Shown here: one piece after another, positions 7,100-23,441 of the stretch
Layout of the letters: every line of letters starts with the position of its first letter
Numbering within the stretch: the stretch's first letter is position 1
NCBI GenBank assembly: GCA_902572735.1
Contig: CACGGX010000005.1
Span: 10,136 to 74,135 of the forward strand
Direction: 5' to 3'
Source: an uncultured Alphaproteobacteria bacterium
GTDB taxonomy: Bacteria > Pseudomonadota > Alphaproteobacteria > HIMB59 > GCA-002718135
Length of the DNA stretch: 64,000 nucleotides
Translations under genes and position numbers: made by a program
Notes under the pieces: generated by a model
Seen by the model: the letters and a program-made list of their open reading frames with translations, nothing else
The model's database searches: none
Told to the model about the DNA's origin: nothing

Positions 7100-7963
7100 T
7101 TAACCTTTTATACTACCAGCTGTTAATCCAGACATAATTCTGCCTTGTAAAAGAAGGGTAATTATTACCAAAGGAACTGTAACTATAACTGAAGCGGCCA
7201 TAATACTTCCCCATGGCACCTCATACTCTATAGTCCCATTGATAAGAGCTATACCTACAGTAATTGTTCTATCACTATTAGTAGCTGTAAAGGTCAGGGC
7301 AAAAAGAAATTCATTCCACACTGCAATCATTGCCATAATTGCTGTAGTAAAGATTGCTGGGGTCATAATTGGGAGAAAAATTTTTCTTAAAATAAGAAAC
7401 GAAGATGCGCCATCTACAATTGCTGCCTCTTCAATTTCCTTAGGAACTCCTTTCATAAAAGTAGTTAATACCCATACGGTAAAAGGTATATTAAACATAG
7501 TATATGTAAAACATAACCATAAGAGAGAAGTTACACCCTTGACCCTTAGATCAAAAATATTAAAATAGAAATCTTTAAAATTTAAAAATAGCTGATACAT
7601 GCCTGTTAGAACAGCTATTTGCGGAAACATTGAAATAGCTAGAATTACAAATAAAAACATGCTTCTGCCTTTAAAATTTACTCTACTTAATGACCAAGCA
7701 GCAAAATAAGAAATTGTAATTGAGATTGAAACAGTAACAGTTGCAACAAATAATGAATTTAGAATTGTCTGAGGGAAATTATGCTCAAATAAAAGATAAT
7801 TATAATTTTTTGGATTTATTTCTGTAGGGAAGAAATTTGGTTCAAAAACTGCTGAACTTCCCTCTAATGATGTCATGACAGAATAATAAAATGGAAAAAC
7901 ACAAAATATAATTACTATCATTTGAAGACTGTATTTAAATATTTTATCGTAAACTTTATTCAT
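7100..7963 (-). CDS. CUT1 sugar ABC transporter permease (UgpE/MalG-like)
   Basis: Six-TM protein with EAA loop EIEEAAIVDGASSFLILRKIFLP. Confidence 0.9.
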   Translation of the reverse strand: MNKVYDKIFKYSLQMIVIIFCVFPFYYSVMTSLEGSSAVFEPNFFPTEINPKNYNYLLFEHNFPQTILNSLFVATVTVSISITISYFAAWSLSRVNFKGRSMFLFVILAISMFPQIAVLTGMYQLFLNFKDFYFNIFDLRVKGVTSLLWLCFTYTMFNIPFTVWVLTTFMKGVPKEIEEAAIVDGASSFLILRKIFLPIMTPAIFTTAIMAMIAVWNEFLFALTFTATNSDRTITVGIALINGTIEYEVPWGSIMAASVIVTVPLVIITLLLQGRIMSGLTAGSIKG

Positions 7964-8877
7964 TATTCCATTTCATCCAATTTATGTAATCTTGTTCTTT
8001 GTATAAATATAACTGCTATTACGCCTATAATTAGTGTCAACATTGTAGAGGCGGCTGCGCCAAATCCGAAATGAGAATATTCAAACATTTCTCTTCTTGC
8101 ATATACTGTCATCGACATAATATCTTTGCTGCCAGCATTAATTAAGTAGATTAAATCAAATACTCGTAATGCATCCAATCCTCTAAATACTATAGCAACT
8201 GCAATAGCAGGAAGTATTAAAGGAAGAATTATATAATAAAATTGTGTAATTCCATTAGTCCCATCAACTTTTCCTGCCTCTAATACTTCGTTTGGAAGTG
8301 CTTTTAGTCCAGCATAAACTAAAATTGCAACAAATGGAGATGTTTTCCATGCATCAATAATGATAATAACAATCATGGATGTCTGGGGATCAGTTGTCCA
8401 AGCTTTACCTTGCTCAATAATGCCCATTCCAATAAGAATATAATTAAATATACCAAACTGATCTTGCAACATCCATTCAAACATTCTTGCACTAACTATT
8501 GTTGGTATTGCCCACGGTATTAAAACTGCTGCTCTAACAAACCATTTTAATTTATTTTCAATTAGCATAATGAGTGCGAAGCTAATTCCTAATATAACTT
8601 CAAGACTTACAGAAAAAACACTAAAAACTATTGTGTTTCTTACAGAGTTCCAAAATAAACTGTCTGCGAGAACCCCGTACCACATACCCTCATAGTTTTC
8701 TAAATAGTTTATGAAGCCAACATAATTTGGATCTAGAAAATTTTCTAACTCTGCATCAGTAAGGCTTAAATAAAGCGTACTAATTAATGGATATAAAGCA
8801 GAAGATAATAATACTATTGTTACAGGTATTAAAAAAATAAATGCTGTTCTTTTTCTTAATTCACTAACTGATTTCAT
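7963..8877 (-). CDS. CUT1 sugar ABC transporter permease (UgpA/MalF-like)
   Basis: EAA loop EVLEAGKVDGTNGITQFYYIILP. Overlaps the next permease by 1 nt. Confidence 0.9.
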   Translation of the reverse strand: MKSVSELRKRTAFIFLIPVTIVLLSSALYPLISTLYLSLTDAELENFLDPNYVGFINYLENYEGMWYGVLADSLFWNSVRNTIVFSVFSVSLEVILGISFALIMLIENKLKWFVRAAVLIPWAIPTIVSARMFEWMLQDQFGIFNYILIGMGIIEQGKAWTTDPQTSMIVIIIIDAWKTSPFVAILVYAGLKALPNEVLEAGKVDGTNGITQFYYIILPLILPAIAVAIVFRGLDALRVFDLIYLINAGSKDIMSMTVYARREMFEYSHFGFGAAASTMLTLIIGVIAVIFIQRTRLHKLDEME

Positions 8878-8894: not shown

Positions 8895-8915
8895 AAGGGG
8901 ATATAAAATCCCCTT
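8895..8915 (-). other. Intra-operon stem-loop between the binding-protein and permease genes
   Basis: aaggggat-ataaa-atcccctt, an 8-bp perfect stem in the 56-nt spacer after the binding-protein gene. Confidence 0.55.
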
Positions 8916-8933
8916 AATTTTTATATATAATTA

Positions 8934-10190
8934 CTACCAGCCTTTGCCTTTAATTTTTTTCAAAGCTTTTTCAAGCTCAGCAACAGCTGTAGTACCATCT
9001 TTTTTACCAGTAATAACTTCATGTGCAGCAGTATAAAATGCTACTGTTACTTGAGGCCATTTACCTGAAGTTTGTGCTGATGGTCTAGGTAATAGAGCTT
9101 GAGACGGACCCTTTAGAAGAGGTAAAAGAGTATACGTTTCAGCATGCTCTTTATTGTCATAAATCTCTATATATACTGGAGGCATCGAATATTCTGCAAT
9201 AGTTGCATGCTGTGCATCTCTATTTGATAGAAATTTAACTAGATCAATAGCAACTTCTTGTTTTTCAGAATATTTTGACACTGCGTAACCCCAGCCACCC
9301 ATAGTACTTGTAGATTTACCATTAGGTCCTCTAGGTAGTTGAACAACATCAAATTTACCTTTTACAGCTGACTCATCTTTATTACTTAAGCTCCATGCAT
9401 AAGGCCAATTTCTCATGAAAACAGCATTACCTTGGTCCCAGATACCTCTTGCATCTTCTTCTTTATAACCAATAACACCTTCTGGAGAAATAGTTCCTAC
9501 CCATTTAGCAGCCATATCTAAAGCTGCAGCAGCATTAGGATTGTTAATAGAGATTGTTCCATCTTTCTCAACAATCATTCCACCGCCATGACTTGCAACC
9601 CACTCTAATGCATCACATGTTAGACCTTCATAGGCATTACCTTGCCATACAAAACCCCACATTTTGTCATTGCCAGCAGCTCTCTCTTTATCTTGAATAA
9701 ATTGAGCTGTTTCAGTCATTTCATCCCAAGTTTCAGGAACATCTCTATTATATTTTTCTAATAGATCTGTTCTGTAATATAACATTGGTATACCTACACT
9801 ATAAGGTAAACCAATTATTTCACCTTTAGCTGTAGTATATGCTGAAAGAACATTAGGCATTATTTCTAATTGCTCATCTAAATATGGTTTCAGATCAATT
9901 AGCTGTGTTCCAAATTCTCCAGCCCATACATTATCAACTTTATATATATCAACATCACTATTTTGTGCTGATAGCCAAGTTTTATATTGTACATATTGAT
10001 CAGAAGTACTTGCAGGCATTTCTAAAAAATTAACTTTATGTCCTGTCTTTTTTTCCCATTCAGCTGTTAACTCCATTGTCATTTGACCCTGAGATCCACC
10101 ACCTTGAGCGAAGTTTAATTCTATCGCAGTAGCGTTTAATGAAAAAATTAAAGCTAACGAAGCAAAAAAGGATAATACTATATTTTTCAT
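8934..10190 (-). CDS. Periplasmic sugar-binding protein, ABC family 1 (CUT1)
   Basis: Has a signal peptide (MKNIVLSFFASLALIFSLNATA). Size and the W/Y-rich pattern (FVWQGNAYEGLTCDALEW) are typical of disaccharide/oligosaccharide binding proteins. Confidence 0.85.
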   Translation of the reverse strand: MKNIVLSFFASLALIFSLNATAIELNFAQGGGSQGQMTMELTAEWEKKTGHKVNFLEMPASTSDQYVQYKTWLSAQNSDVDIYKVDNVWAGEFGTQLIDLKPYLDEQLEIMPNVLSAYTTAKGEIIGLPYSVGIPMLYYRTDLLEKYNRDVPETWDEMTETAQFIQDKERAAGNDKMWGFVWQGNAYEGLTCDALEWVASHGGGMIVEKDGTISINNPNAAAALDMAAKWVGTISPEGVIGYKEEDARGIWDQGNAVFMRNWPYAWSLSNKDESAVKGKFDVVQLPRGPNGKSTSTMGGWGYAVSKYSEKQEVAIDLVKFLSNRDAQHATIAEYSMPPVYIEIYDNKEHAETYTLLPLLKGPSQALLPRPSAQTSGKWPQVTVAFYTAAHEVITGKKDGTTAVAELEKALKKIKGKGW

Positions 10191-10292: not shown

Positions 10293-11597
10293 TTAATCTT
10301 GACAGTTTATAATAATTTCCGGGTTTTCTGCGTTTTCTGGTGTTAATTGAATTTCTTTTGGCCATTTAAAATTCTTTTTTAATAATGGATCATTTGTGTT
10401 TTCCATAAATTTTTTTAGATTTTTATTCAGTTCTTTATAGCTTTTTAACTTTTTATAATCTTTAATTGGGTTTCTTTCCAATGGATCTAGAAATAAATCA
10501 AAAAATTCCTCTTTATTTTTTCTCATTTTTTTCAAACCATGTTTTAATAAAAAACTTTTGGATACACTTTCATCAATATTAGACAGATTTAGTTTTTTCC
10601 TATTATTTAATCTTTTTAACAATCTAAATCTTTTTGATCTTATACTTCTACAAGGCTCTACTGATGTATGAATATTAACTTCAGAATAAACAAATTTTCT
10701 TTTTTTTGTTTTATATTTTTTATTAGGCAGAATGTATGGGTTTAAATATTTTGGTTTTTTAATTTCTAAAATTTTACATATTGTTGGAAAAATATCTATA
10801 TTAGAAGTTAAATCATCATAGACAACACCGCCTTCAAATACATTTTTAAGATATGCTATAAGAAATATTCCAGTTCCATGATCGTTTAAATTACATTTCA
10901 TTCCTGGCCAAGCAATACCATGATCGGTCGTTAAAAGTATTAGCGTATTATTTAATTTTTTCTTTTCTTTGAGAGTATCATAAATTTTTCCTATACCTCT
11001 ATCTATTTTCTCTAAAGAAGAATAAAATTTTGCCATATCTTCTCTCATTTGTTTATTATCTAAAAAAAGCTCAGGCGGTCTAATCCAATTAGGATTAAAA
11101 TTTTCTGATATTTTTTTTACATACTCCCTATGAGTATCAAAATATCCTATTGAAATAAAAAATGGCTTTTTAGAGTTATATTTTTTAATCCACTTTGAAG
11201 CAGTTGAAGATATTTTGATTGAGTCAGTTGTAGTTGTACAAAATGTTTTATTATATCCAAGTTCATTTACTTTTTTTTTATCTATTTCATGTTGAATACC
11301 AAATAACGCTGTTTCAAAATCTTTATTTTTTAAATAATTTGATAAGTGTAGACTGTAATCATGTAATCTACTACCTCTATGAGCCAAACCATACATCCCA
11401 TTTTGATGAGGATATAAACCTGTCATTAACGAACTTCTGCTTGGCGAGCAAGTGGGTGCAGCAGTAAAAAAATTTCTATATACGCTACCCTTATTTGCTA
11501 TTTTTTGAATATTATTTGTTTTAGCGTTGTATCCATATGGAGAAATATATCTTCCAGTATCATGTGTATGTATTAAAACTATATTTATGTTCTTCAT
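10293..11597 (-). CDS. Cys-type sulfatase (formylglycine-dependent arylsulfatase family), no signal peptide
   Basis: Sulfatase signature APTCSPSRSSLMTGLYPHQNG (C-x-P-x-R). N-terminus is MKNINIVLIHTHDTG with no leader. LLTTDHG is also present. Confidence 0.85.
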   Translation of the reverse strand: MKNINIVLIHTHDTGRYISPYGYNAKTNNIQKIANKGSVYRNFFTAAPTCSPSRSSLMTGLYPHQNGMYGLAHRGSRLHDYSLHLSNYLKNKDFETALFGIQHEIDKKKVNELGYNKTFCTTTTDSIKISSTASKWIKKYNSKKPFFISIGYFDTHREYVKKISENFNPNWIRPPELFLDNKQMREDMAKFYSSLEKIDRGIGKIYDTLKEKKKLNNTLILLTTDHGIAWPGMKCNLNDHGTGIFLIAYLKNVFEGGVVYDDLTSNIDIFPTICKILEIKKPKYLNPYILPNKKYKTKKRKFVYSEVNIHTSVEPCRSIRSKRFRLLKRLNNRKKLNLSNIDESVSKSFLLKHGLKKMRKNKEEFFDLFLDPLERNPIKDYKKLKSYKELNKNLKKFMENTNDPLLKKNFKWPKEIQLTPENAENPEIIINCQD

Positions 11598-13093
11598 TTA
11601 ATAAAAAAGGGTGAGGTCCAACATATTTGATTATTTTTTTGCTTTATTTTTATATAAACATTATCATCTTTTTTTAATGGTAGTGTAATTTTTTTTTGAA
11701 AATTCCATTCTTTGAAGTTAGGAATTTTGTTAAATAAAATTGCCGGTGTATCTATTTCTCCTAAATTAAAAGAAACAGATCCTTTAAATAAATCTTTTGT
11801 TAAAATATCAAATTTTTTATTATTGGTTAAAGCTGTTATTTGCGAATTTTTTTTTAATTTTGCTAATATTGTAAATCCGCTTGTTTCATTAGTATAATTA
11901 TTACTATTTCCAGATGTTAAAAATTTAAATTTGATTTTATTTTTAAATTTTTTTACTTCTGGAATGAAAAAAGAATACTTACTTTTTTTATCTAAAGGAG
12001 AAACAATTTCTGGTCCTCTAAATTTATTTTCAATTGTAATTATATCAATATTTTTAAATAGAATTTCTCCTTTCCAAAGAAATTCTTTATTTCTTTCTCC
12101 CCAACCAAAATCTATATTTATAATTGATATATTTTTTTTATTTTTAATATTTTTTTGATCATTACAATTAAATCTTTTAAATAAACTTGTATTCTTTATT
12201 ATATCTATGTATTCTATTGGAAATCTACCTTCTACATTTATATCTAATAAATTACTTTTTTTAATCTTTACATCAGAGCCTAGAACTTTTTTATTTAAGT
12301 ATATATTTGGAATAATTTTATCACCAGTTAAAGCAAACGTTTTTCTTTCATTTATTGATTTAAATATCGAGTTTCTATTTTTTGATTTAACCAAAACACC
12401 AAATCTTCCATGGCCATAACTTCCAGGAGATGCGCTATGGTGATCAGTATTAGCAATAAATCCCAGTTTAATTTTATTCTCTAAAGCATATTTAATGGTA
12501 TTTTGATAATTTCTAGGACCCATTGAATGTAAAAAAGGATATTCCGCTTGATCATTTTCAGAACAACCATGCATAGAATATAGTTCAACAACTGGTGAAA
12601 CACCTTCTTCAAAAATGTCCCAGTTAACTCCTCGTCGTCCTTGTTTATAGGATAGGTGATGTGGCATAAAAATATAATTTTTTATTTTATTTTTTTTAAA
12701 TTTCTTTTTTAAAATATCAATTTGATCAACTAGCAGTTCATGTTTTTTTATATCCTTAAATACAATTGTTTGATCACCATATTTATTTGAATGCACTTCA
12801 TATCCTGGATATATAATAATTCCCTTTTCTTTTTTGATTGTTTCTAAAATTTTATTCCAATTTTTTTTGAGTTTTTTAAAACCAACTTTATGAAAATCAA
12901 TGATATGTTTTATTGAGGGGTCTTTAGTATTCATATCAGGCCAACCAGCATGACCTGTAATTGAAACAAAATCTAGGGATAATTTTGAAAATGCAATTGC
13001 TCTTTCTAAACTACCATGAGCATAAGAGATATTACAATGATTATGTAAATCACCAAAAAGAATTAATTCAGTATTTTTTGATTTTGTTTTCAA
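11594..13093 (-). CDS. PHP-fold (polymerase/histidinol-phosphatase-like) metal-dependent hydrolase with a beta-rich C-terminal domain
   Basis: N-terminal GDLHNHCNISYAHG. Later His clusters are ITGHAGW, MPHHLSY, SMHGCSE and NTDHHS. A 4-nt ATGA overlap couples it to the sulfatase gene. Confidence 0.6.
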   Translation of the reverse strand: MKTKSKNTELILFGDLHNHCNISYAHGSLERAIAFSKLSLDFVSITGHAGWPDMNTKDPSIKHIIDFHKVGFKKLKKNWNKILETIKKEKGIIIYPGYEVHSNKYGDQTIVFKDIKKHELLVDQIDILKKKFKKNKIKNYIFMPHHLSYKQGRRGVNWDIFEEGVSPVVELYSMHGCSENDQAEYPFLHSMGPRNYQNTIKYALENKIKLGFIANTDHHSASPGSYGHGRFGVLVKSKNRNSIFKSINERKTFALTGDKIIPNIYLNKKVLGSDVKIKKSNLLDINVEGRFPIEYIDIIKNTSLFKRFNCNDQKNIKNKKNISIINIDFGWGERNKEFLWKGEILFKNIDIITIENKFRGPEIVSPLDKKSKYSFFIPEVKKFKNKIKFKFLTSGNSNNYTNETSGFTILAKLKKNSQITALTNNKKFDILTKDLFKGSVSFNLGEIDTPAILFNKIPNFKEWNFQKKITLPLKKDDNVYIKIKQKNNQICWTSPFFIK

Positions 13094-14276
13094 TTAATCT
13101 TCCTTTTTTTGCTATCGATTTATTTATCATATCTATTATTTTTAAAGATTTGATCCCATTTTCAGCTGAAACTTCTGATTTCCCTTTTTTTAAATAGTTT
13201 ATATAACTTTTCAGTAATTTTATATCTGCACCATAATGTGATGTATTATGATAATTATCTTTCGCATCAATACGTTTAAATTTTTTTCCATTATCATATG
13301 TTATTTCAATTATACCTGTTGATCTGATAAGTTTTAATTTACCTTTTATGCCAATAACTTCTAGTGTTTCTTGATCTTCAGCTGCTGGACCAAAACAGGA
13401 AAAATTTATATTTCCAATTACCTCATTTTCAAAATTAATATTACAAGAAAAATGAGAAAGAATATCACTTCCCTCAGCCCACACACAATGATCGTCTATT
13501 TGTCTTTCATCATTTAATGATGAATAATTATTTTTAAATTTTTTTAAGTTTTCTCTCGAATCACCCAATGCTTCATATCTTCGATAGTTACATTTTTCAA
13601 AACAATCTTTACATCTTATATTTTTATTTTTTTTTGAGGTAAAATGTGAATGTCTACTTCCAAAACTTGAAAGAGATACAACTTCTGAATTTGAAAACCA
13701 TCTTAAAACATCAACATGATGAGAACACTTATCATTTATGCCACCACCAGAGAACTTATTGTACCTATGCCAAGTCTGAAAATATCTTGTATAGGGTACG
13801 ATAGAATTAAGTTGAACTAAATACACATCTCCAATTAGTTTTTTATTGTAAATTAAATCCCAAGCTTTAATCCATGAAGTTTCATATCTTCTAGTAAATG
13901 ACATTAAAAATTGAAATTTGTTTCTTTTTTCAAGCTCAACAATTTCTTTAGCATGTTTTAAACTTACAGATATTGGCTTATCTAAAATAGATTTAATTTT
14001 TTTTTCTGCTGCAAGTTTTGCATGTTTGTAATGTTGGTCTGTATGAGAAGTAATTATTAAACCATCCAATTTTTCATTATTAACTAAACTCTTTGCATTT
14101 TTATAAATATTTATTTTATTATCATTAATTTTTTTTTTTACTTCGTTGCTTTTTTCTTCAATTAAATCACACAAAGCGACTATCTTTAATTTTTTTTTGA
14201 AATACTTATTAATAAGAAAAGAAAGGCTTGCGCCCCTTACTCCAACACCAATTATACCAATCTTAAATGACATCAT
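13068..14276 (-). CDS. Gfo/Idh/MocA-family NAD(P)-dependent oxidoreductase with a Cys-rich insertion
   Basis: Rossmann N-terminus FKIGIIGVGVRGAS and the DKP motif. Insertion is RCKDCFEKCNYRR (CxxCxxxC). Confidence 0.75.
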   Translation of the reverse strand: MMSFKIGIIGVGVRGASLSFLINKYFKKKLKIVALCDLIEEKSNEVKKKINDNKINIYKNAKSLVNNEKLDGLIITSHTDQHYKHAKLAAEKKIKSILDKPISVSLKHAKEIVELEKRNKFQFLMSFTRRYETSWIKAWDLIYNKKLIGDVYLVQLNSIVPYTRYFQTWHRYNKFSGGGINDKCSHHVDVLRWFSNSEVVSLSSFGSRHSHFTSKKNKNIRCKDCFEKCNYRRYEALGDSRENLKKFKNNYSSLNDERQIDDHCVWAEGSDILSHFSCNINFENEVIGNINFSCFGPAAEDQETLEVIGIKGKLKLIRSTGIIEITYDNGKKFKRIDAKDNYHNTSHYGADIKLLKSYINYLKKGKSEVSAENGIKSLKIIDMINKSIAKKGRLIENKIKKY

Positions 14277-14324: not shown

Positions 14325-15323
14325 TTATATATTTGGTACTTTTTTTTGAATAAAATAATTATTATCTTTATGTTGTTTTATTATTGCAGGAATTATTTCT
14401 TTATAAGCATCATATAAGCTAGTGTTAGCTTTAGGTAGCTGATCTTTTATTAAATTACTCAGTTTTGGTAAATTGTAAGAGGGTACAGATGGGAACATAT
14501 GATGTTCAACATGATATTCCATATGCCAATACAAAAAGCTAAATATAGGATTAAATCGTACTGATCTTGTTGTGTATCTATGATCCTTTATATCTTCTGG
14601 AAGTCCTAAATGCTGAGTCATGTTAAATATATTAATGATGTTACCCCAGTATCTTGGGAAGAAAATTAATAGTGCCGGAAGAGGATTCATTAGATAGAAA
14701 GATAAAGCAAAAGATGAAACCCATAATAATACATGTATTCTAGAAATGAGTCGACATTTTGCTATTTCATTTTGAGGTATACAATCTCTCATTACAGGAG
14801 TCGTAAATCCTAAAGCATGTTTAATGATTTCGTACTTAAATGAATGTTTAAAATATATTAACTCGTAAAATGGGATAAAGCTAAATAGAAAACTTCTTAA
14901 ACTTGGATATTGATGGAACAAAGCAGCTTCGAAATCATGAGGATCACTCACTGAGGATGTATTACTATGATGTCTGAAATGACTCCAAGTCCATCTTGTG
15001 GGCTCAAAGTCAGTCATAAAAGAACCAATTTGGTAAAAAATTTCATTTAAATACTTCGACTTAAATGCTGTTCTATGACCACACTCATGCCAAATTGGAT
15101 TACTAGAATAAAAAAGAATACCATAAAGCCATAGCCACAAGACTACCCACCAAGTCCCCCATGTCATTACTGACATGTAACCAAAGAAAAATAAAAGAAT
15201 GAAATATAGAGTTACGTGTCGTAAACCTTTTAAATCACTTTTTTTTGATAATTGTTTTAAATCTTTTTTACTTATTTCAGCCCTAAACCATTTGTCATCA
15301 ACATTATCTAATTTTTCTACCAT
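14325..15323 (-). CDS. Membrane di-iron 'fatty acid desaturase'-family protein (paralog 1)
   Basis: Three His boxes, HECGHR, HFRHH and HVEHHMFP, with TM segments between them. Confidence 0.8.
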   Translation of the reverse strand: MVEKLDNVDDKWFRAEISKKDLKQLSKKSDLKGLRHVTLYFILLFFFGYMSVMTWGTWWVVLWLWLYGILFYSSNPIWHECGHRTAFKSKYLNEIFYQIGSFMTDFEPTRWTWSHFRHHSNTSSVSDPHDFEAALFHQYPSLRSFLFSFIPFYELIYFKHSFKYEIIKHALGFTTPVMRDCIPQNEIAKCRLISRIHVLLWVSSFALSFYLMNPLPALLIFFPRYWGNIINIFNMTQHLGLPEDIKDHRYTTRSVRFNPIFSFLYWHMEYHVEHHMFPSVPSYNLPKLSNLIKDQLPKANTSLYDAYKEIIPAIIKQHKDNNYFIQKKVPNI

Positions 15324-15483
15324 ATCTACTTATACAATTAATATGAGAATATTTTAATACAAAAATTAGCTATTTTTTGTCACAATTAAGAAATTAAATA
15401 AAAATAAAATTTCTAGATTTAATATCAAATTTCCAAATTTATTGATTTTTTTTTCTTTTTAGATACGATATTCAAAAATCATT

Positions 15484-16203
15484 ATGAAAATAGATAAAAC
15501 ACAATTTGAACAAAATGGATACCTCGTTTTACCAAACATTGTTCCTAAGTCGACTTTAATTAAACTTAATAAAAACGCAGATCAAATGATAAAGGATTTT
15601 AAAAAAAGAATTAATAGAGAGCAATCAAATAATAATAGAAAAAAATTTGGCGATATTAGTCAAAATGGAAAAATTTTTTTTGCTAATCAATGCGAATACT
15701 ATTCTCATATAAACGCTTACGCTAAAGGTAAATTTATTAGAAAAATTGCCTCAAAACTTTTAGGTAATAAAATTTATTTGTTTAATGAACAGTTAGTAAA
15801 TAAAAATCCTAATACTCCTAGTTCATTTAGTTGGCATCAAGATTCAGGTTATATTCATTTCAAACATAAACCATATATATCTATTTGGCTTGCTCTGACA
15901 GATACTACAGAAAAAAATGGAGCATTAAGTATTATCCCAATAAACTTAAAAAAAATCAAGAATGCGAAGACACATATATGGCAAAACAAATCAAAAGATT
16001 TAGGAATCAAAGTTAATGATAAAAAAGCTGTTCAACTTTGTGTTAGTGCCGGAACATTAGTAATTTTTTCAAGTCTAACACCTCATTCCTCTGGGGCAAA
16101 TATTACTAAAAAAAATCGTAAAGCTTATTTATCTCAATATTCATCAGAGCATATTATAGATCCTTTTAATGGAATTCAAAGAGGTCGAGCATATTTAATG
16201 TAG
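15484..16203 (+). CDS. Phytanoyl-CoA dioxygenase (PhyH)-family Fe(II)/2-oxoglutarate oxygenase
   Basis: FEQNGYLVLPNIV start, WHQDSGY (HxD facial-triad region) and the distal LTPHSSGAN. Confidence 0.7.
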   Translation: MKIDKTQFEQNGYLVLPNIVPKSTLIKLNKNADQMIKDFKKRINREQSNNNRKKFGDISQNGKIFFANQCEYYSHINAYAKGKFIRKIASKLLGNKIYLFNEQLVNKNPNTPSSFSWHQDSGYIHFKHKPYISIWLALTDTTEKNGALSIIPINLKKIKNAKTHIWQNKSKDLGIKVNDKKAVQLCVSAGTLVIFSSLTPHSSGANITKKNRKAYLSQYSSEHIIDPFNGIQRGRAYLM

Positions 16204-16274
16204 TATTATTATAATTTAAAAGCTTTTATTATTTATAGAAATTATAAATTTAATTTTTTGAATTTGTAAAAAAG

Positions 16275-17345
16275 TTAATTAATATCAATCCAATGACCCA
16301 ATTCACTACTTTCATAACATTTATCAAGTATATTTTGAATTTCAGCACCTCGATCAAAATCGGGTTCATGATTTGTATTGCTTTCAATAGATTCAATAAA
16401 TCTTTCAAAATTAGTAGGTGAAGGAGGGCAGTTAATTTCCTCCCATTTTAATTTATCTTTCTTACTTGAAAATTCTCGTTCAGTATCATTAGTAAACATA
16501 AATTTATTACCCTCATTAATAGGATCGTCAAATTCAATTTTAACGGCACCTTTATCCCCAAATATTCTTAGCTCTAATCTATTTGAATAACCAGTTGCAA
16601 ATCTAGTTGCATTAATAGTGCCGATTGCACCATTATCAAATTCTACCATAGATAGAAAAGTATCATTTGCATCTAATATATAATCTTTAATTTTTTCTCC
16701 CTTTGAATGAAAGGTTTTTAGAAAAGAATTCAGTTTTTTGATCTTTCCAATCGGCCGAGAAGCAAAATCAAATATATGAACACCAATATCACCTAATGTA
16801 CCTTTGCTGCCATGATTTGTGGATAATCTCCAAAGCCATTTATCTTGTTCTTTCCAATTGCCCCAGTAGTTTGATGTTAGCCAAGATTGATTATAATTAG
16901 CATCCATATGCATAATATTACCAATTTTACCTTCTTTAACCATCTTGCAAAGTTCTTGATATCCAGATGAATTACGATAACTAAAGTTGACCATGTTAAT
17001 AAGGTTTTTACCTTTAAGTGCATCACACATTAATTTAGCATCAGCATAATTTTCAGCTAGTGGTTTCTCACAAAAAATATGTTTATTTTTTTCTATTGCT
17101 TTAATTGATATTTCTTTATGAAAAGCATCAGGTGTTGTGTTCGAAATTGCATCTACATCTGATTGTTCTAAAAGTTCATCGACACTATTATATCTATGAT
17201 CAATATTAAATTTATCACAAAACTCATTTAATCTATCATTATTTACATCACATGCCGCAACAACATCTGAATTTTTATTATCTTTAAAAGCACTTGCATG
17301 CCATTCAGCTATTCCACCTGTACCAACAATGCCAACTTTAATCAT
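16275..17345 (-). CDS. Gfo/Idh/MocA-family oxidoreductase (ThuB-like)
   Basis: MIKVGIVGTGGIAEWH Rossmann motif and the CEKPLA motif. A 4-nt overlap couples it to the ThuA-like gene. Confidence 0.8.
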   Translation of the reverse strand: MIKVGIVGTGGIAEWHASAFKDNKNSDVVAACDVNNDRLNEFCDKFNIDHRYNSVDELLEQSDVDAISNTTPDAFHKEISIKAIEKNKHIFCEKPLAENYADAKLMCDALKGKNLINMVNFSYRNSSGYQELCKMVKEGKIGNIMHMDANYNQSWLTSNYWGNWKEQDKWLWRLSTNHGSKGTLGDIGVHIFDFASRPIGKIKKLNSFLKTFHSKGEKIKDYILDANDTFLSMVEFDNGAIGTINATRFATGYSNRLELRIFGDKGAVKIEFDDPINEGNKFMFTNDTEREFSSKKDKLKWEEINCPPSPTNFERFIESIESNTNHEPDFDRGAEIQNILDKCYESSELGHWIDIN

Positions 17346-18127
17346 TTTTTATAATTATGATCTACTTGATATCCTTTTACCTCAATTGGCTCAACTGGTG
17401 TTTTTCTCTCCATATTGTCTATACCCTTAGCAATTCTATCAATCCAAATCCCGGATGTTTTTTCAGGACAAACCCAATGAACAGAATTTTTTATTACCCT
17501 TTGAACATCTTTATTATAATAAACAGGGTATGACTCGTGACCTGGTCTAAAATAAAATATTTTACCATTACCTCTTTTATAACAAAGGCCTGATCTAAAA
17601 ACTTCACCACCTTCAAACCAACTTACAAATACTGTTTCATCTGGTGCTGGAACTTGAAAAGGTTCTCCATACATCTCAGTCATATCAATTTCAAAATATT
17701 CTCCCAAACCCTCGGCAATAGGGTGGCCTGGGTTACAAACCCAAACTCTTTCCTTTTCTCCTCTTTCTGCCCATCTAATGTTTGCAGTTGTACCCATCAT
17801 TCTTTTAAATATTTTTGAATGATGACCAGAGTGAAGTACCAAAAGTCCCATTCCCTCTAAAACTCTTTGTTGTATCCGATCTACAATTTTATCTTCTACA
17901 AGATTATGAGCTTTGTGACCCCACCACATTAAAACATCAGTTTTGTCTAATAGTTCTTCACTTAACCCGTGATCTTTTTCTTCCAAAGTTGCTGTTGAAA
18001 TATTCAAACTTTTATCGTCAGATAAAAAATCTTTAATACAACCATGAATACCTTTTGGATAAATTGATTTTACATGTTCATCTTCTTGCTCGTGTACAAA
18101 TTCATTCCAAATTACTAAATTGAGCAT
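17342..18127 (-). CDS. ThuA-domain protein (trehalose-utilisation-like, class-I amidotransferase-like fold)
   Basis: About 260 aa. Pattern VIWNEFVHE...DVLMWWGH.AH..V...LLVLHSGH.SK is typical of ThuA. Confidence 0.65.
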   Translation of the reverse strand: MLNLVIWNEFVHEQEDEHVKSIYPKGIHGCIKDFLSDDKSLNISTATLEEKDHGLSEELLDKTDVLMWWGHKAHNLVEDKIVDRIQQRVLEGMGLLVLHSGHHSKIFKRMMGTTANIRWAERGEKERVWVCNPGHPIAEGLGEYFEIDMTEMYGEPFQVPAPDETVFVSWFEGGEVFRSGLCYKRGNGKIFYFRPGHESYPVYYNKDVQRVIKNSVHWVCPEKTSGIWIDRIAKGIDNMERKTPVEPIEVKGYQVDHNYKK

Positions 18128-18128
18128 G

Positions 18129-19103
18129 CTACCTTACCCTTCCGCCATGAAATCTATGTCCTAAAATTGCTAATATAATTATTAATCCGTTAAAGAATTG
18201 TCTCCATACTCCGCTCATACCCATAGCCACAACACCAACTTCCATATAAGCTATAACTCCAACTCCAAAAACAGCCCCAACTATAGTTCCAACACCACCC
18301 CAAGTAGGTGTACCTCCAATAAACACTGCAGCCAGAGCAAGTAATAAGTAGCCAAATCCTTGAGTTGGCCACCAAGTAAAATTAATTAAACAAGAAAATA
18401 TTCCTGCAAGCGCCGCACCTAATCCAACATACATAAACGCGCTAATTCTTACCCAGTTAACATTAATTCCCATTTGTGCTGCTGAGTCTGGATTGTCTCC
18501 TACATGATGAATATGAATTCCAAAAACGTGTTTTCTGTAAAGATAATAGGAAAAAATTGTAAACAACGCAGCCCAGTACACTTGCATTGGAACACCGAAA
18601 AGTTTTCCAACTAATACATCGTAGATCCAGTGATCAGAAATTTCCATAAAAGAAATTGATTTACTATCACTAGCTACAAACAAAAAACCTCTTATAAAAA
18701 ATAATGCTCCAAGAGAAGCAACCAAAGATGAAAGGCGTCCGTAAACAACCAAGCATCCCATTAGTATGCCAACTACTGCTCCAGAAAGTATTCCTATAAG
18801 AATACATAATAATGGATCAAGTCCTGCTTTTAATAAAAGAGCAAAAATGTATGCTGACAATCCAAAAGTAGATGCAAAAGACAAGTCTATTTCTCCTGCA
18901 GTAACTAAAAAAACAAGAGGTATAACCATAAACATAATTACTGGAAGCATTACAAAAACAGATTGATGTAAATTTGGTCTCATCATTACTTCTGGAGCTC
19001 CAATTAGGAAAACCAACATTAAAATTATAAAGTAACCTAAGCTTCCTAATGCTCTTCCATTTTTTCCAATTAAATTTTTAAATGTATTTTCTTTGGTACT
19101 CAT
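18129..19103 (-). CDS. CUT2 (ribose-type) sugar ABC transporter permease
   Basis: A 324-aa polytopic protein with RbsC/branched-chain type topology. Confidence 0.85.
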   Translation of the reverse strand: MSTKENTFKNLIGKNGRALGSLGYFIILMLVFLIGAPEVMMRPNLHQSVFVMLPVIMFMVIPLVFLVTAGEIDLSFASTFGLSAYIFALLLKAGLDPLLCILIGILSGAVVGILMGCLVVYGRLSSLVASLGALFFIRGFLFVASDSKSISFMEISDHWIYDVLVGKLFGVPMQVYWAALFTIFSYYLYRKHVFGIHIHHVGDNPDSAAQMGINVNWVRISAFMYVGLGAALAGIFSCLINFTWWPTQGFGYLLLALAAVFIGGTPTWGGVGTIVGAVFGVGVIAYMEVGVVAMGMSGVWRQFFNGLIIILAILGHRFHGGRVR

Positions 19104-19849
19104 TAATGTTTACTCACTGCATCTTTCATAACTTTCATAAGTGCTTCAGGACCCTCAATATCATTTTTATTTAATTGATGAACTACTTCACCTCTGTCTA
19201 AAACAATAAATCTATCAGAAATATCATAGACATGATAAATATTATGACCAATAAATAAAACTGATCTTCCAGATTTTTTAACATTATCTACAAAGTCAAA
19301 AACTTTTTGAGTCTCAATGAGTGAAAGGGCTGTTGTTGGCTCATCCAATACAATTAATTCTGCATTGTTATATATTGCTCTTGCTATTGCTACTCCTTGT
19401 CTTTCACCACCCGATAAATTACCAACAGGTGATTCAGCATCAATTAGTTTTGATGTAAATCCAATTTCTCTAATTAATTTGTTTGCTTCTCTTACTTGTT
19501 CTTTTTCTCTTATAAAACCAAATCTATGTTTTAATTCTTTGCCCATAAAAATATTCCACACTATCGATTGCTGTGGACATAAGGCTCTGTCTTGGAAAAC
19601 AGTTTCTATTCCAGCCTCTCTGGCTTTTGAGGCATTCCAATTTTTAACTTCATTTCCTCTAATTATAATTTGTCCATCATCCGGAGCATGAACACCAACT
19701 AACGTTTTGATTAAGGTGGATTTACCAGCTCCATTATCTCCAATAAGTCCAACAACTTCTCCAACATCAACTTTTATTGATGCTTTTTTTAATGCTGTTA
19801 TTCCGCCAAAACTTTTGGAAACATTTTTAAGTTCTATTATTGCGCTCAT
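19103..19849 (-). CDS. Sugar ABC transporter ATP-binding protein, single-cassette (half-size for CUT2)
   Basis: Walker A GDNGAGKST, signature LSGGERQGVA, Walker B LDEPTTAL. Only one nucleotide-binding domain in 248 aa. Confidence 0.9.
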   Translation of the reverse strand: MSAIIELKNVSKSFGGITALKKASIKVDVGEVVGLIGDNGAGKSTLIKTLVGVHAPDDGQIIIRGNEVKNWNASKAREAGIETVFQDRALCPQQSIVWNIFMGKELKHRFGFIREKEQVREANKLIREIGFTSKLIDAESPVGNLSGGERQGVAIARAIYNNAELIVLDEPTTALSLIETQKVFDFVDNVKKSGRSVLFIGHNIYHVYDISDRFIVLDRGEVVHQLNKNDIEGPEALMKVMKDAVSKH

Positions 19850-19855
19850 ATATGT

Positions 19856-19882
19856 AGCTGATCTACTTACAGTAGATCAGCT
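19856..19882 (-). other. Intra-operon stem-loop after the binding-protein gene
   Basis: agctgatctact-tac-agtagatcagct, a 12-bp perfect stem in the 46-nt spacer. Confidence 0.6.
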
Positions 19883-19895
19883 CTGTTTGATATAT

Positions 19896-20885
19896 TTATC
19901 TTAAACCTGCGTTAGCAAGTTCCATTACTGATTTGTAATTCTCAGTATGTACAAATCCTGCACCAGTATCTTGATTTAATGCTCCAGTTCCAAGAACTTT
20001 CATTTGACATAAAGCAAGTACAGGTAGGTAGCCTTGTAAGAATGGTTGTTGATCAGAAGTTAAATGAACATAACCGTTTTCAAAAGCCGTCATGATTTGT
20101 GGACTAGTATCAAAGCCGATTTGCAATAATTCTCCTGGACCATATCCAGCAGCTTTAGCATATGCTTCAGCATTTCCTAGTTTTTGACCACCATCATGTA
20201 CAATAATTTTTGTATCAGGATTTGCAGCTAGTGCAGCTGAAAATACAGGGATTGCAAGATTTGGATCAGTTGCTTGTTCTGGAGTACCATCTAGAACTAC
20301 AACGTTCATTCCATGTTCTTCAAAAATTATTCTAGCACCATCTTCTCTTTGCGCTCTAGAATAATCTCCAATTGGAACCATTACGATAGCAGTATCACCA
20401 GCTTTAAGATCAAATCTTCTAATTGCTTCTCTTGCTAATTCTTTACCTTGAGTTGCAAGATTTGCACCAACGTATCCACCTCCATAAGCAGCTCTTACTG
20501 CAGGAACATCAACGTTTTGATACATCATTAAGATACCAGCTTCACTAGCCATTTTAGCTAGAGGCATAATTGCATCATCACCAGGGTGACCCATCATACC
20601 AATACCATCAACGCCAGCACCAATTGCTTCTCTTAGTTGTTGAATCATTCTGTCTGATTGCCATTCTGAATAAAGAATTTCTGCATCAGCACCAGTATCT
20701 CTGATAGCATTTTCTGCACCAGTTTGAACTATTCCTGCGAAACCATCGCCTTCAGCTCCACCAGCAAAGAAGTGAATTCTTACATCACTACACCATCCAT
20801 CACCTAAGTTTTTATCAATAGCATAAACTGAACCACTGAAAGAAAAAACGAAGAGTGTTGATAATAAAATTTTTAATATTTTCAT
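19896..20885 (-). CDS. Periplasmic sugar-binding protein (CUT2 / Peripla_BP_4 type)
   Basis: Signal peptide MKILKILLSTLFVFSFSGSVYA. About 330 aa, LacI/RbsB-fold-like. Confidence 0.8.
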   Translation of the reverse strand: MKILKILLSTLFVFSFSGSVYAIDKNLGDGWCSDVRIHFFAGGAEGDGFAGIVQTGAENAIRDTGADAEILYSEWQSDRMIQQLREAIGAGVDGIGMMGHPGDDAIMPLAKMASEAGILMMYQNVDVPAVRAAYGGGYVGANLATQGKELAREAIRRFDLKAGDTAIVMVPIGDYSRAQREDGARIIFEEHGMNVVVLDGTPEQATDPNLAIPVFSAALAANPDTKIIVHDGGQKLGNAEAYAKAAGYGPGELLQIGFDTSPQIMTAFENGYVHLTSDQQPFLQGYLPVLALCQMKVLGTGALNQDTGAGFVHTENYKSVMELANAGLR

Positions 20886-20947
20886 TATTCCTCCCTTGAA
20901 TAAATATAATGTAAGTGAACTTAAAAAATTAAATTAGTAATGTCAAC

Positions 20948-22384
20948 CTAGTAGAGTCTTTTACTAATCCTTTTGGTCTGACCGTGACTATAAACCCCAT
21001 CTACGCCACCATCTCTTCCATAACCTGATCTTTTGTAACCACCACCTGGAAGATTATTTCCATCAACAAACCAATCGTTTTGCCAAATTATTCCTGCTTG
21101 AACTCTATCAGCAGTCCATTTTGCTTTTTGGTCATCTGAGGTAAATACTCCAGAAGCAAGACCGTATTTTGTTGAATTAGCTATACTTATTGCTTCTTCT
21201 TCATCTTCAAAATCAAATATTGATGTTACTGGACCAAATATTTCTTCTTGAGCAATTGTTGCATCAACTTTGACATTATCAAAAATAGTTGGTTGGTAAA
21301 AATTACCATCATCTCTCTCAGCTTTATCTCCACCTATGGTTAAAGTTGCACCAGATTGTACGCCAGATTTTACATAATTTGAGACTCTTTGCATTTGATC
21401 AGTTGATATTAAAGGTGTTACTTCAGTTCCTTCCTCATCACCTGCGCCTATTTTTAATTTTTGCGTTTTTGCAATTAGCTTTGTCATATATTCATCTTTA
21501 ATTTTAGGATGAACAATAACTCTAGACATTGCTACACATATTTGTCCTGCATTTGGTTTAAAAATTCCCTTAACTGTACTATCAACAGCTTTATCGATGT
21601 CAGCATCAGGATAAATTATTGCTGCAGATTTCCCACCTAATTCAAAATGTGTTGGGACAATTCTATCTGCTGTCTCTTTTAATATCTCTGAAGCAACTTC
21701 AGGCGATCCAGTAAAGACAATATAATCACTTCCAGGATGTTGAACTAATTTTCGACCAGTTGTTTCTCCATAACCGTGAACAATATTTATAATTCCTTTT
21801 GGAACACCAACATCCTCAAATATTTGACCATAAAAATTAGAAGATATAGGACAAAGTTCGGGAGGTTTTATTACGATGGTATTTCCGACAATCCAATTCT
21901 GCGCAACCATTCCTGAGAATATAGAAACAGGATAATTCCATGGAACTATTTGAAGCGCTACACCAAAAGGCTCTAAAACTACATAGTTTAATGTATCATG
22001 ACCAGATGGAATTAATTTATTTTCTATTTTATCCGTTAGTCCGGCATAAAAATCAAATGTGTCCGCAGCACCTTTAAATTCATCTACACATTGTTTTATA
22101 GTTTTCCCATTTTCTTGACTTAGAAGTTTTCCACCTTCATCTTTTCGCTCTCTTAATTTTTGAGCTATGGCTCTCATCATTTTTGACTTTTCTTTAGCAT
22201 CCATGTCTACTAAAATTCTTTTATCGAATGCTTTTTTTGCAGCTTGAAAAGCTAAATCAATTTCTTGATCTAATGCTTCATCAATATTACCTACTATTTT
22301 TTGATTAGCAGGATTTAGAACAGGAATGTTTTTTTTTGATAATGAATCAATAAATTTACCGTCAATAAAATTTCTCAACTCCAT
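20948..22384 (-). CDS. NAD(P)-dependent aldehyde dehydrogenase
   Basis: ELGGKSA (catalytic Glu region), GQICVAMSR (catalytic Cys), EEIFGPV. Confidence 0.9.
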   Translation of the reverse strand: MELRNFIDGKFIDSLSKKNIPVLNPANQKIVGNIDEALDQEIDLAFQAAKKAFDKRILVDMDAKEKSKMMRAIAQKLRERKDEGGKLLSQENGKTIKQCVDEFKGAADTFDFYAGLTDKIENKLIPSGHDTLNYVVLEPFGVALQIVPWNYPVSIFSGMVAQNWIVGNTIVIKPPELCPISSNFYGQIFEDVGVPKGIINIVHGYGETTGRKLVQHPGSDYIVFTGSPEVASEILKETADRIVPTHFELGGKSAAIIYPDADIDKAVDSTVKGIFKPNAGQICVAMSRVIVHPKIKDEYMTKLIAKTQKLKIGAGDEEGTEVTPLISTDQMQRVSNYVKSGVQSGATLTIGGDKAERDDGNFYQPTIFDNVKVDATIAQEEIFGPVTSIFDFEDEEEAISIANSTKYGLASGVFTSDDQKAKWTADRVQAGIIWQNDWFVDGNNLPGGGYKRSGYGRDGGVDGVYSHGQTKRISKRLY

Positions 22385-22430
22385 ATTATTAAGTAATTAA
22401 AGCTAAAGTATAAGCTGTGTCAAGAACAGT

Positions 22431-23441
22431 TTAATTATTTGGAACTTGAACCGGAATAAAATAATCTGGATTTTTAGACTTCTTTATAACTGCAGGTATA
22501 ATTTCTTTATAAGCTTGGTATAAAGTTTGTGGTTCTGGCATTTGATCTTTTATAACTTCGTATAATTTAGGAAGATTATATGAAGGTATCATAGGAAACA
22601 TATGGTGTTCAATATGGTATTCCATCTTCCAATAAATAAAACTAAAAATCGGATTAAGTCTAACCGATCTTGTTGATAGTCGGTGATCCTTGGCATTTTC
22701 TTTTAGACCCATGTGTTGAGTCACACCCCAGAGACCATTAATGCCAAAGAATTTTGGAATTAAAAATAAAAATATTGGAAGAAAGGTAGAGAAGTAAATT
22801 GAAGCAGCTATTATTGTGACCCATAGTAAGACAAAAATTCTAGAACTGTTAATACAATCTTTGATTTTATCTTCTGGAATACAATCTTTCATTACATTGG
22901 TTTGAATACCTAAAGCATGTTTTATAATTTCTACATAAAGAGATTTATGAATAGTGAAAAAACCAATTCCGGGAATAAAATTTAAAATAAAACTTAAAAA
23001 TGTATGTTTAGCAAAAATACTCCCATCAACTTCATAGTCATGAGGGTCAACCGAAGCGGTATAGCTGTGGTGAAGAGAATGGCTCCACTTCCATCTAACA
23101 GGTTCAAAATTATTCATAAAACTAGCAATGTTATAGAAGAATTTATTTAACCTTCTATTTTTAAAAGCGGTTCCATGACCACACTCATGCCATATAGCGT
23201 CAGCTCCACCCCACATCGTGCAATAAGCAAGATACGCAGGCACAAACCATAAGCTATTCCATGTATATAGGCATAATGAACACAGGGTCCCTAATGATAG
23301 TACATAAATAATAATATGTTTCCAACCTTCAAAATCTGACCTTTTGGATAGGTTTTTGAGTGTTTTTCTATCAATGTTAGCCTTAAACCATTCCTCTGAA
23401 ATATTGTTTATCCCTGTTTGAATTTTTTTTGTCTCTGACAT
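22431..23441 (-). CDS. Membrane di-iron 'fatty acid desaturase'-family protein (paralog 2)
   Basis: His boxes HECGHG, HSLHH and HIEHHMFP. Collinear with the 14325..15323 product along its full length. Confidence 0.8.
   Translation of the reverse strand: MSETKKIQTGINNISEEWFKANIDRKTLKNLSKRSDFEGWKHIIIYVLSLGTLCSLCLYTWNSLWFVPAYLAYCTMWGGADAIWHECGHGTAFKNRRLNKFFYNIASFMNNFEPVRWKWSHSLHHSYTASVDPHDYEVDGSIFAKHTFLSFILNFIPGIGFFTIHKSLYVEIIKHALGIQTNVMKDCIPEDKIKDCINSSRIFVLLWVTIIAASIYFSTFLPIFLFLIPKFFGINGLWGVTQHMGLKENAKDHRLSTRSVRLNPIFSFIYWKMEYHIEHHMFPMIPSYNLPKLYEVIKDQMPEPQTLYQAYKEIIPAVIKKSKNPDYFIPVQVPNN

Follow-up and report, generated by a model that had tools for sequence, protein, structure and literature searches.

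Among the described systems, the rhizobial moc locus comes closest to the pair of genes considered here. Its genes mocCABRDEF are those of rhizopine catabolism (PMC6668481), mocDEF form one rhizopine-inducible unit (PMC10107442), and the MocDEF 'ferredoxin oxygenase' is the proposed demethylase of 3-O-methyl-scyllo-inosamine in the model of Bahar et al. 1998, as that model is cited by later papers (PMC13434037, PMC10107442, PMC6668481). The pair in question, hereafter paralogs A and B, is located in a stretch of 64,000 nucleotides (the window) of contig CACGGX010000005.1, from the assembly GCA_902572735.1 of an uncultured SAR11 alphaproteobacterium. Paralog A (14325..15323, 332 amino acids (aa)) and paralog B (22431..23441, 336 aa) both lie on the minus strand, and their products match PF00487 FA_desaturase with 112.8 and 122.8 bits, respectively, against a cut-off of 29.7. 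On balance, we lean towards the view that A and B are MocD-family integral-membrane di-iron monooxygenases of a marine clade, acting on an imported carbohydrate-like solute, most likely by O-demethylation. Judged from its sequences, the window family is a marine, expanded variant of the known moc-type system, which is itself known from genetics.

The likeness to the moc system concerns the oxygenase, its electron supply and its neighbours. Aligned over its full length (residues 11-330), paralog A shares 38% identity with MocD from the moc locus of R. indicum (E 1e-78), and the window paralogs have the N-terminal motif, the His boxes and the C-terminal tail in common with it. In addition, their own genome encodes a MocE-family Rieske ferredoxin and a reductase of the pyridine-nucleotide-disulfide type, and a Gfo/Idh/MocA dehydrogenase, a CUT2-type binding protein and a PanB-like gene accompany the oxygenase genes. 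In contrast with the moc system, the SAR11 genes form a separate marine clade with six copies per genome, and their partners in the window are an aldehyde dehydrogenase, ThuA (GH4 in other loci) and a CUT1 importer; Pfam annotation of the window revealed neither a MocR-type regulator nor a MocC/IolE-like gene. The preliminary description of this DNA had regarded PF00487 proteins as unexpected in sugar operons. This does not hold, as MocD, MocA and the CUT2-type MocB all stem from one rhizopine locus described in the 1990s and, the 'MocA' of Gfo/Idh/MocA coming from the same locus as MocD, the association of such an oxygenase with a Gfo-type dehydrogenase has a precedent nearly 30 years old. 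The same description suggested that a methyl group on a sugar-like substrate may undergo hydroxylation or demethylation at the expense of O2, and this agrees with the published model for MocD, the closest named relative.

Three other systems deserve comparison. In marine Bacteroidota, a P450 6-O-methyl-D-galactose demethylase works together with a ferredoxin and a ferredoxin reductase (PMC6292453, PMC9400963, PMC10033563). As in the scheme proposed here, three components remove a methyl ether from an algal sugar in an O2-dependent manner with release of formaldehyde, the genes being found beside sugar-utilisation genes and dehydrogenases. The two differ in that the P450 is a soluble haem protein and not a membrane di-iron protein, that its ferredoxin is of another type, and that no PanB-like partner is reported for it. 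Regarding AlkB and XylM, the resemblance lies in the fold class, the nine-histidine di-iron site, the delivery of electrons by a small soluble iron-sulfur protein and the occurrence of rubredoxin fusions. The AlkB motifs, which we take to be HELxHK, EHxxGHH, NYxEHYG and LQRHSDHH, were sought in A and B and are absent, as is any sequence-level match to AlkB; the window paralogs carry HECGH and TQHxGL, and their context is hydrophilic sugar uptake rather than hydrocarbons. The genome does hold, outside the window, a PF00487 gene of the AlkB type (C4:9853-10872, minus strand; L003:1387-2406), with the motifs HELIHRK, EHIYGHH, NYIQHYGL and LHAEHH; its product shares only about 19% identity with the window paralogs, and the motifs point to an enzyme resembling alkane hydroxylases in a SAR11 genome. 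Finally, acyl-lipid and acyl-CoA desaturases such as DesA and DesB belong to the same Pfam family and display the same His-box pattern (HxxxH, HxxHH, HxxHH), but differ in redox partner, operon context and copy number. Paralogs A and B reach only 23-46 bits with the DesA and DesB equivalog models, whose cut-off is 500.

A and B had been described as paralogous from end to end, and BLASTP bears this out with 168/329 identities (51%, E 1e-118) between residues 5-331 and 11-335. All the motifs listed for the pair are indeed found in it, namely WF[RK]A.I..K.LK.LSK[KR]SD, HECGH, H..HH, H[VI]EHHMFP and Y.AYKEIIPA[IV]IK, and the His clusters of the FA_desaturase domain (HExxH, HxxHH, QH, HxEHH) are conserved in both. 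In alignments of the marine clade, H85, H89, H121, H124, H125, H243, H276, H279 and H280 are invariant, and the same set minus H124 is listed as invariant when rhizobial MocD-like proteins and fused members are included. The N-terminal motif W[YF]...I.[RK]K..K.L..[RK]SD and the His boxes are common to the window paralogs and the rhizobial MocD-like proteins in the alignment, which shows the features shared by A and B to be hallmarks of the whole MocD family. A phmmer search against 1.84 billion cluster representatives retrieved only 2,532 of them at E <= 0.001, including 98 at E <= 1e-30. At the structural level, an AlphaFold (AF2) model of paralog B (predicted local distance difference test, pLDDT, 88.4) was related by Foldseek to desaturase-like subunits of the Ycf2-FtsHi complex and to AlkB (8sbb, 8f6t), at the level of the fold only, with template modelling (TM) scores of 0.5-0.6, those for 8sbb and 8f6t being about 0.5. 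The family profile gave nothing but chance matches among PDB sequences, so that no solved desaturase or AlkB structure is recognised by sequence.

The relation to the rhizobial proteins was examined by tblastn of paralog B against annotated plasmids. This search returned 288 plasmid records, mostly from Rhizobium and Sinorhizobium, with full-length matches at 37-41% identity and E 1e-69, one of the records being annotated 'hydrocarbon oxygenase MocD-like'. In Rhizobium etli, the MocD-like gene is followed by a MocE-like Rieske protein, a flavin adenine dinucleotide (FAD) reductase and a 'ketopantoate hydroxymethyltransferase', and the same set of four genes is present on pSymB of Sinorhizobium meliloti. 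The canonical moc order in R. indicum reads IolE-like, Gfo/Idh/MocA, binding protein, MocR-type regulator, MocD, MocE, reductase, PanB-like and purU. A marine plasmid of Marivivens carries MocD-like, MocE and PanB-like genes (no reductase being annotated) next to a CUT2 importer, iolG and iolC. A tree of 120 sequences unites the six SAR11 paralogs in a single marine clade with a support of 99 in the SH-like approximate likelihood ratio test (SH-aLRT), and the rhizobial MocD group forms a separate nearby clade (98), outside which the window paralogs are placed; the subclade of the 22431 type (paralog B) also takes in sequences from Rhodobacteraceae and gammaproteobacteria. This tree was rooted on the AlkB-like gene, whose branch is very long, and the Nostoc and Phyllobacterium 'desaturases' chosen as outgroups fell within the wider family. 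Therefore, of the phylogenetic placement that the preliminary description had called for, membership of a distinct marine clade is obtained, whereas a reliably rooted split from bona fide lipid desaturases is not.

The window paralogs are part of a larger set. The source assembly comprises 1.32 Mb, is 83% complete and has about 29% G+C; loci nearly identical to those of the window are present in GORG single-cell genomes labelled Pelagibacteraceae or uncultured Alphaproteobacteria, which identifies the source as a SAR11 bacterium. Of the seven PF00487 genes found in the genome, six encode the N-terminal motif, with identities of 41-52% to paralog B: besides the two of the window, contig C9 holds two, and C22 and C3 hold one each. 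Six copies were likewise counted in a 96%-complete genome of this genus, and among 301 genomes sampled evenly across the alphaproteobacteria only 14 hold a copy at E <= 1e-40.

The probable electron supply is encoded on contig C9, where two of the paralogs flank a Pyr_redox_2/Reductase_C reductase and a Rieske protein of 105 aa, each encoded once in the genome. The latter scores 137.4 with the MocE-family model TIGR02377, for which the cut-off is 136.15, and it is the sole MocE-family ferredoxin gene found in the genome. The C9 cluster further contains two PanB-like genes, an FA_hydroxylase-family gene, a lactonase, an IlvD/EDD dehydratase and a divergent CUT2 importer. The FA_hydroxylase-family product, a PF04116 membrane protein (C9:59237-60244), adds a second kind of di-iron oxygenase to the operon that contains two MocD-like genes. 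Neither a MocE gene nor a reductase gene is present in the window or beside A and B, and we infer that these two would use the C9 ferredoxin/reductase pair in trans. Besides, fusion proteins occur among the distant members of the family, whose identity to paralog B is 31-41%: the oxygenase is joined there to a Rieske domain, alone or together with an FNR-type reductase, or else to rubredoxin, with or without rubredoxin reductase. These fusions support a path from a reductase through a small iron-sulfur protein to the di-iron centre. Single-chain versions exist among public metagenome proteins (P0134, P0220 and P0248), in which the oxygenase is joined to Rieske and FNR-type reductase domains (760 aa) or to rubredoxin and rubredoxin reductase (811-818 aa).

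As for the gene context, neighbours were typed by BLAST against Pfam-annotated proteins of the same genome, in 20 loci from relatives and 80 from a species-representative collection, and were counted for 143 genes of the marine clade, a highly redundant sample that nevertheless covers several orders. It had been argued from the window that the adjacency of oxygenase and importer is a real link and not a matter of chance. Such a link is supported by the presence, at most eight genes away, of a gene for an ATP-binding cassette (ABC) importer for 128 of these 143 genes, and the association of the oxygenase genes with sugar importers is thus a real, conserved functional link. For five of the six paralog types, most loci have as neighbours CUT1 or CUT2 importers, Gfo/Idh/MocA, ThuA, GH4, lactonase and sugar-acid dehydratase. 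Paralog B has orthologues with 61-99% identity and a conserved operon in 80 loci, recurring in SAR11, in MarineAlpha5, in bins of Rhodobacteraceae/Paracoccaceae, in a Porticoccaceae bin and in another gammaproteobacterial bin. The 22431-type gene is almost always first in this operon, the order being oxygenase, aldehyde dehydrogenase, sometimes a PanB-like gene, then CUT2 substrate-binding protein, ATPase and permease, followed by ThuA and Gfo/Idh/MocA or, in other loci, by a GH4 glycosidase that takes the place of this pair. The same arrangement emerges from precomputed Pfam calls on metagenome contigs. Of the 84 loci of the 22431 orthogroup, 71 have the aldehyde dehydrogenase at most two genes from the oxygenase, and 13 have a divergent Rieske gene beside the orthologue, upstream of it. 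Another arrangement was observed in a complete 1.41-Mb genome of an order-level relative (L035:7315-12127), in which the single MocD-like/PanB-like pair is bordered by a Gln-synt_C family gene on one side and, on the other, by the divergent gene for the alpha subunit of a Rieske ring-hydroxylating oxygenase; such surroundings suggest methylated-amine or one-carbon metabolism more than sugar uptake.

Orthologues of the 14325 type (paralog A) are restricted to the same SAR11 genus, and in at least 27 related loci the gene is directly ahead of the CUT1 genes. In about five of the 32 related loci, as in the window (10293-14276), a block encoding a Gfo/Idh/MocA dehydrogenase, a protein of 499 aa and a sulfatase separates the two; it was also met once with no oxygenase gene, and it looks like a mobile or variable cassette within a sugar-uptake island. 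The Gfo gene that made the two units seem parallel is, in unit 1, therefore partly an accident of this variable cassette: of the parallel architecture initially proposed, the link to an importer is conserved, while the unit 1 dehydrogenase belongs to the sulfatase cassette.

Outside the window, the most widely conserved neighbour in the clade is a PanB-like gene, found for 38 of the 143 genes, for 11 of 14 in the case of the C9a type, and in all four rhizobial or Marivivens loci inspected. The genome has three divergent PanB-like genes, two on C9 and one on C6; none is in unit 2, although orthologous operons at 75% identity or less keep one. Like the MocE ferredoxin, the reductase and GH4, this partner was missed by the preliminary description because these best-conserved partners lie outside the window or are missing from both units. 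With the panB equivalog model, the PanB-like proteins score 86-102 bits, the cut-off being 207.55. In every partner from SAR11 to rhizobia, the GDS loop, the Asp of D-x-P and the K-x-E segment are deleted or replaced, while the second half of the fold is retained and a C-terminal extension is gained; the lost residues are presumably those that bind Mg2+ and the oxo-acid in the E. coli PanB structure. That a PanB-like gene could be the real panB of the cell was rejected on the score, the lost segments and the presence of a genuine panB on contig C1. On the R. indicum plasmid pPR12A203 (L138:11681-13417), mocDEF are followed by a PanB-like gene and by purU, encoding formyltetrahydrofolate deformylase; purU was also sought beside the marine loci as a folate link, and was found only in this moc locus. 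From the chemistry of the family and from purU in this one locus, our guess is that the PanB-like partner may pass the released one-carbon unit to tetrahydrofolate. The searchable literature holds no mention of MocD together with a PanB-like enzyme or of a folate link of the moc locus, and searches combining SAR11, desaturase-like genes, PanB and Rieske proteins gave nothing relevant; nor are these genes mentioned in a survey of SAR11 binding proteins (PMC11485210). On C6 (2735-7189), a PanB-like gene occurs with two GH4-like genes, a PhyH-like dioxygenase and an apparent ABC importer (with a 683-aa substrate-binding protein), without a MocD-like gene, according to BLAST typing at low identities; at this locus, the PhyH enzyme may stand in for the oxygenase.

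Coming back to the window, Pfam annotation of the neighbours and typed BLAST agree with the earlier claim that each paralog heads a minus-strand unit containing a Gfo/Idh/MocA dehydrogenase and an ABC importer. In unit 1, paralog A is followed by a Cys-rich Gfo/Idh/MocA dehydrogenase (13068-14276), by the 499-aa protein (11594-13093), which shows only a weak CehA/McbA metallohydrolase match, and by the sulfatase (10293-11597). The importer genes come next, with the CUT1 substrate-binding protein (8934-10190), two CUT1 permeases (7963-8877 and 7100-7963) and a MalK-type ATPase (5929-7035), assigned by both Pfam and typed BLAST. This binding protein matches solved sugar-binding proteins, the 6J9W series with 344 bits and, more weakly, MalE3 and the trehalose/maltose-binding protein. 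In unit 2, an aldehyde dehydrogenase of 478 aa (20948..22384; PF00171, 494.6 bits) starts 46 nt downstream of paralog B and remains under every NCBIfam equivalog cut-off, its best score being 438.7 with BADH, where 668.6 is required. It is followed by a CUT2-type periplasmic binding protein (19896..20885, PF13407), a CUT2 ABC ATPase (19103-19849, PF00005) and a CUT2 permease (18129-19103, PF02653), and then by a ThuA-family protein (17342..18127; PF06283, 111.6 bits) and a ThuB-like Gfo/Idh/MocA dehydrogenase (16275..17345; PF01408/PF22725/PF02894). All the genes of both units are on the minus strand, and the gaps that follow the two oxygenase genes measure 46-48 nt. The CUT2 binding protein shows only weak similarity to solved sugar-binding proteins (43 bits at most), and the best NCBIfam models for the unit 2 dehydrogenase are levoglucosan dehydrogenase and IolG, both far under their cut-offs.

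Between the two units, a gene for a PhyH-family Fe(II)/2-oxoglutarate dioxygenase (15484..16203, plus strand; PF05721, 95.7 bits) is divergent from paralog A, and PhyH genes also adjoin the C22-type paralogs of the clade in five of six loci. A terminator-like scan detected a perfect 12-bp hairpin at 19856..19882, after the gene for the CUT2 binding protein, and a second perfect hairpin is found at 8895-8915, after that for the CUT1 binding protein. Both lie inside their operons, and hairpins 3' of the two binding-protein genes are consistent with a differential mRNA stability favouring the binding protein.

The mechanism that we favour would start with the reduction of the FAD-containing ferredoxin reductase by NAD(P)H. 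Electrons would then pass to the MocE-family Rieske [2Fe-2S] ferredoxin and from there to the nine-histidine di-iron centre, which would activate O2 and hydroxylate a C-H bond of a small carbohydrate-like solute taken up by the adjacent ABC importer. The likeliest target would be the methyl ether of a sugar, cyclitol or glycoside, in which case the hemiacetal product would split into free sugar and formaldehyde. The freed sugar might be handled by the Gfo/Idh/MocA and ThuA pair, or by GH4 in other genomes. For the one-carbon or aldehyde product, this part might fall to the aldehyde dehydrogenase and, at other places in the genome, to the PanB-derived protein. As a tentative extension of this scheme, the genus may carry six substrate-specialised O-demethylases of the MocD type that share one ferredoxin/reductase pair, with a PanB-derived enzyme passing the one-carbon unit to tetrahydrofolate.

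Several observations weigh against demethylation by A and B. First, as the window holds no MocE, reductase or PanB-like gene, an electron supply in trans has to be assumed. Secondly, the searchable literature contains no biochemical characterisation of any MocD-family enzyme, MocD included, the demethylase role being a genetic model. Moreover, the CUT1 binding protein encoded after paralog A resembles maltose- and trehalose/maltose-type binding proteins, whose ligands have no methyl group, and the aldehyde dehydrogenase directly after paralog B fits the oxidation of a methyl group to alcohol, aldehyde and acid at least as well as demethylation. The CUT2 binding protein is 27% identical over 131 aa to the product of the MocB-position gene of the R. 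indicum moc locus, and the window dehydrogenase is 22% identical, over part of its length, to that of the MocA-position gene; these two being only remote relatives of MocB and MocA, the substrate would not be rhizopine. Finally, scans for promoters and terminators are uninformative in this AT-rich window, promoter-like sites being fewer than in shuffled sequence.

The alternative that survives best, although we hold it to be rather doubtful, keeps the same enzyme and electron chain and moves the hydroxylation to a methyl or alkyl carbon, for instance of a 6-deoxy sugar, a C-methyl cyclitol or an alkyl aglycone, with subsequent oxidation to the acid according to the logic of AlkB/AlkJ/AlkH. Such C-hydroxylation would explain the tightly linked aldehyde dehydrogenase of the 22431-type loci, with which a Gfo-type dehydrogenase shares the operon, and it is in line with the AlkB-like fold and with rubredoxin fusions in the wider family, as in AlkB systems. 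However, none of the other five paralog types has the aldehyde dehydrogenase at its loci, the sole functional model for a member of the family is O-demethylation, and a one-carbon product is indicated both by the PanB-like partner, with its wide conservation, and by the purU gene of the canonical locus. It is unlikely that the paralogs act on methylated solutes other than carbohydrates, such as N-methylated osmolytes or amines, the 'sugar' importers either carrying these or being unrelated. In favour of this idea, single-copy order-level relatives have the MocD-like/PanB-like pair beside a glutamine-synthetase-family gene and a Rieske ring-hydroxylating oxygenase, with no sugar importer, and the top-scoring NCBIfam model for paralog B is the arginine hydroxylase GntB, albeit with 51 bits, far under the cut-off of 380; the sugar-type neighbours seen in the window, and at most loci for all paralog types but one, nevertheless speak against it. 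Finally, the Pfam match to FA_desaturase and the names 'fatty acid desaturase' or 'stearoyl-CoA 9-desaturase' that relatives bear in public records would suit ordinary membrane-lipid desaturases or hydroxylases placed beside sugar genes by accident, but this identity is very improbable and was rejected on the NCBIfam scores, a gene order kept across several orders and two classes, the dedicated Rieske ferredoxin and reductase, the fusion proteins, the MocD homology, and six copies in a streamlined genome, which do not fit a housekeeping role.

If O-demethylation of the MocD type is confirmed, SAR11, the most abundant heterotroph of the ocean, would spend six genes of a 1.3-Mb genome on methylated sugars. 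Methylated sugars can block ordinary carbohydrate catabolism, and the P450 system of Bacteroidota is the sole characterised marine route of methyl removal in the literature searched. The MocD-type enzymes would then represent an unrecognised sink for methylated sugars in oceanic dissolved organic matter and a testable handle on the semi-labile carbohydrates eaten by SAR11; should the six O-demethylases and the PanB-derived enzyme work as outlined, methyl ethers would be both an entry to the sugar and a one-carbon energy source. For the family, the present assignment would give MocD, which has been handled only genetically since 1998, its first biochemical context, and would correct a widespread mis-annotation as 'fatty acid desaturase', 'stearoyl-CoA desaturase' or, for the partner, 'ketopantoate hydroxymethyltransferase'. 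The value of the finding lies in the six-fold expansion in SAR11, in the undescribed PanB-derived partner and in a prospective, testable route for the methylated sugars of the ocean.

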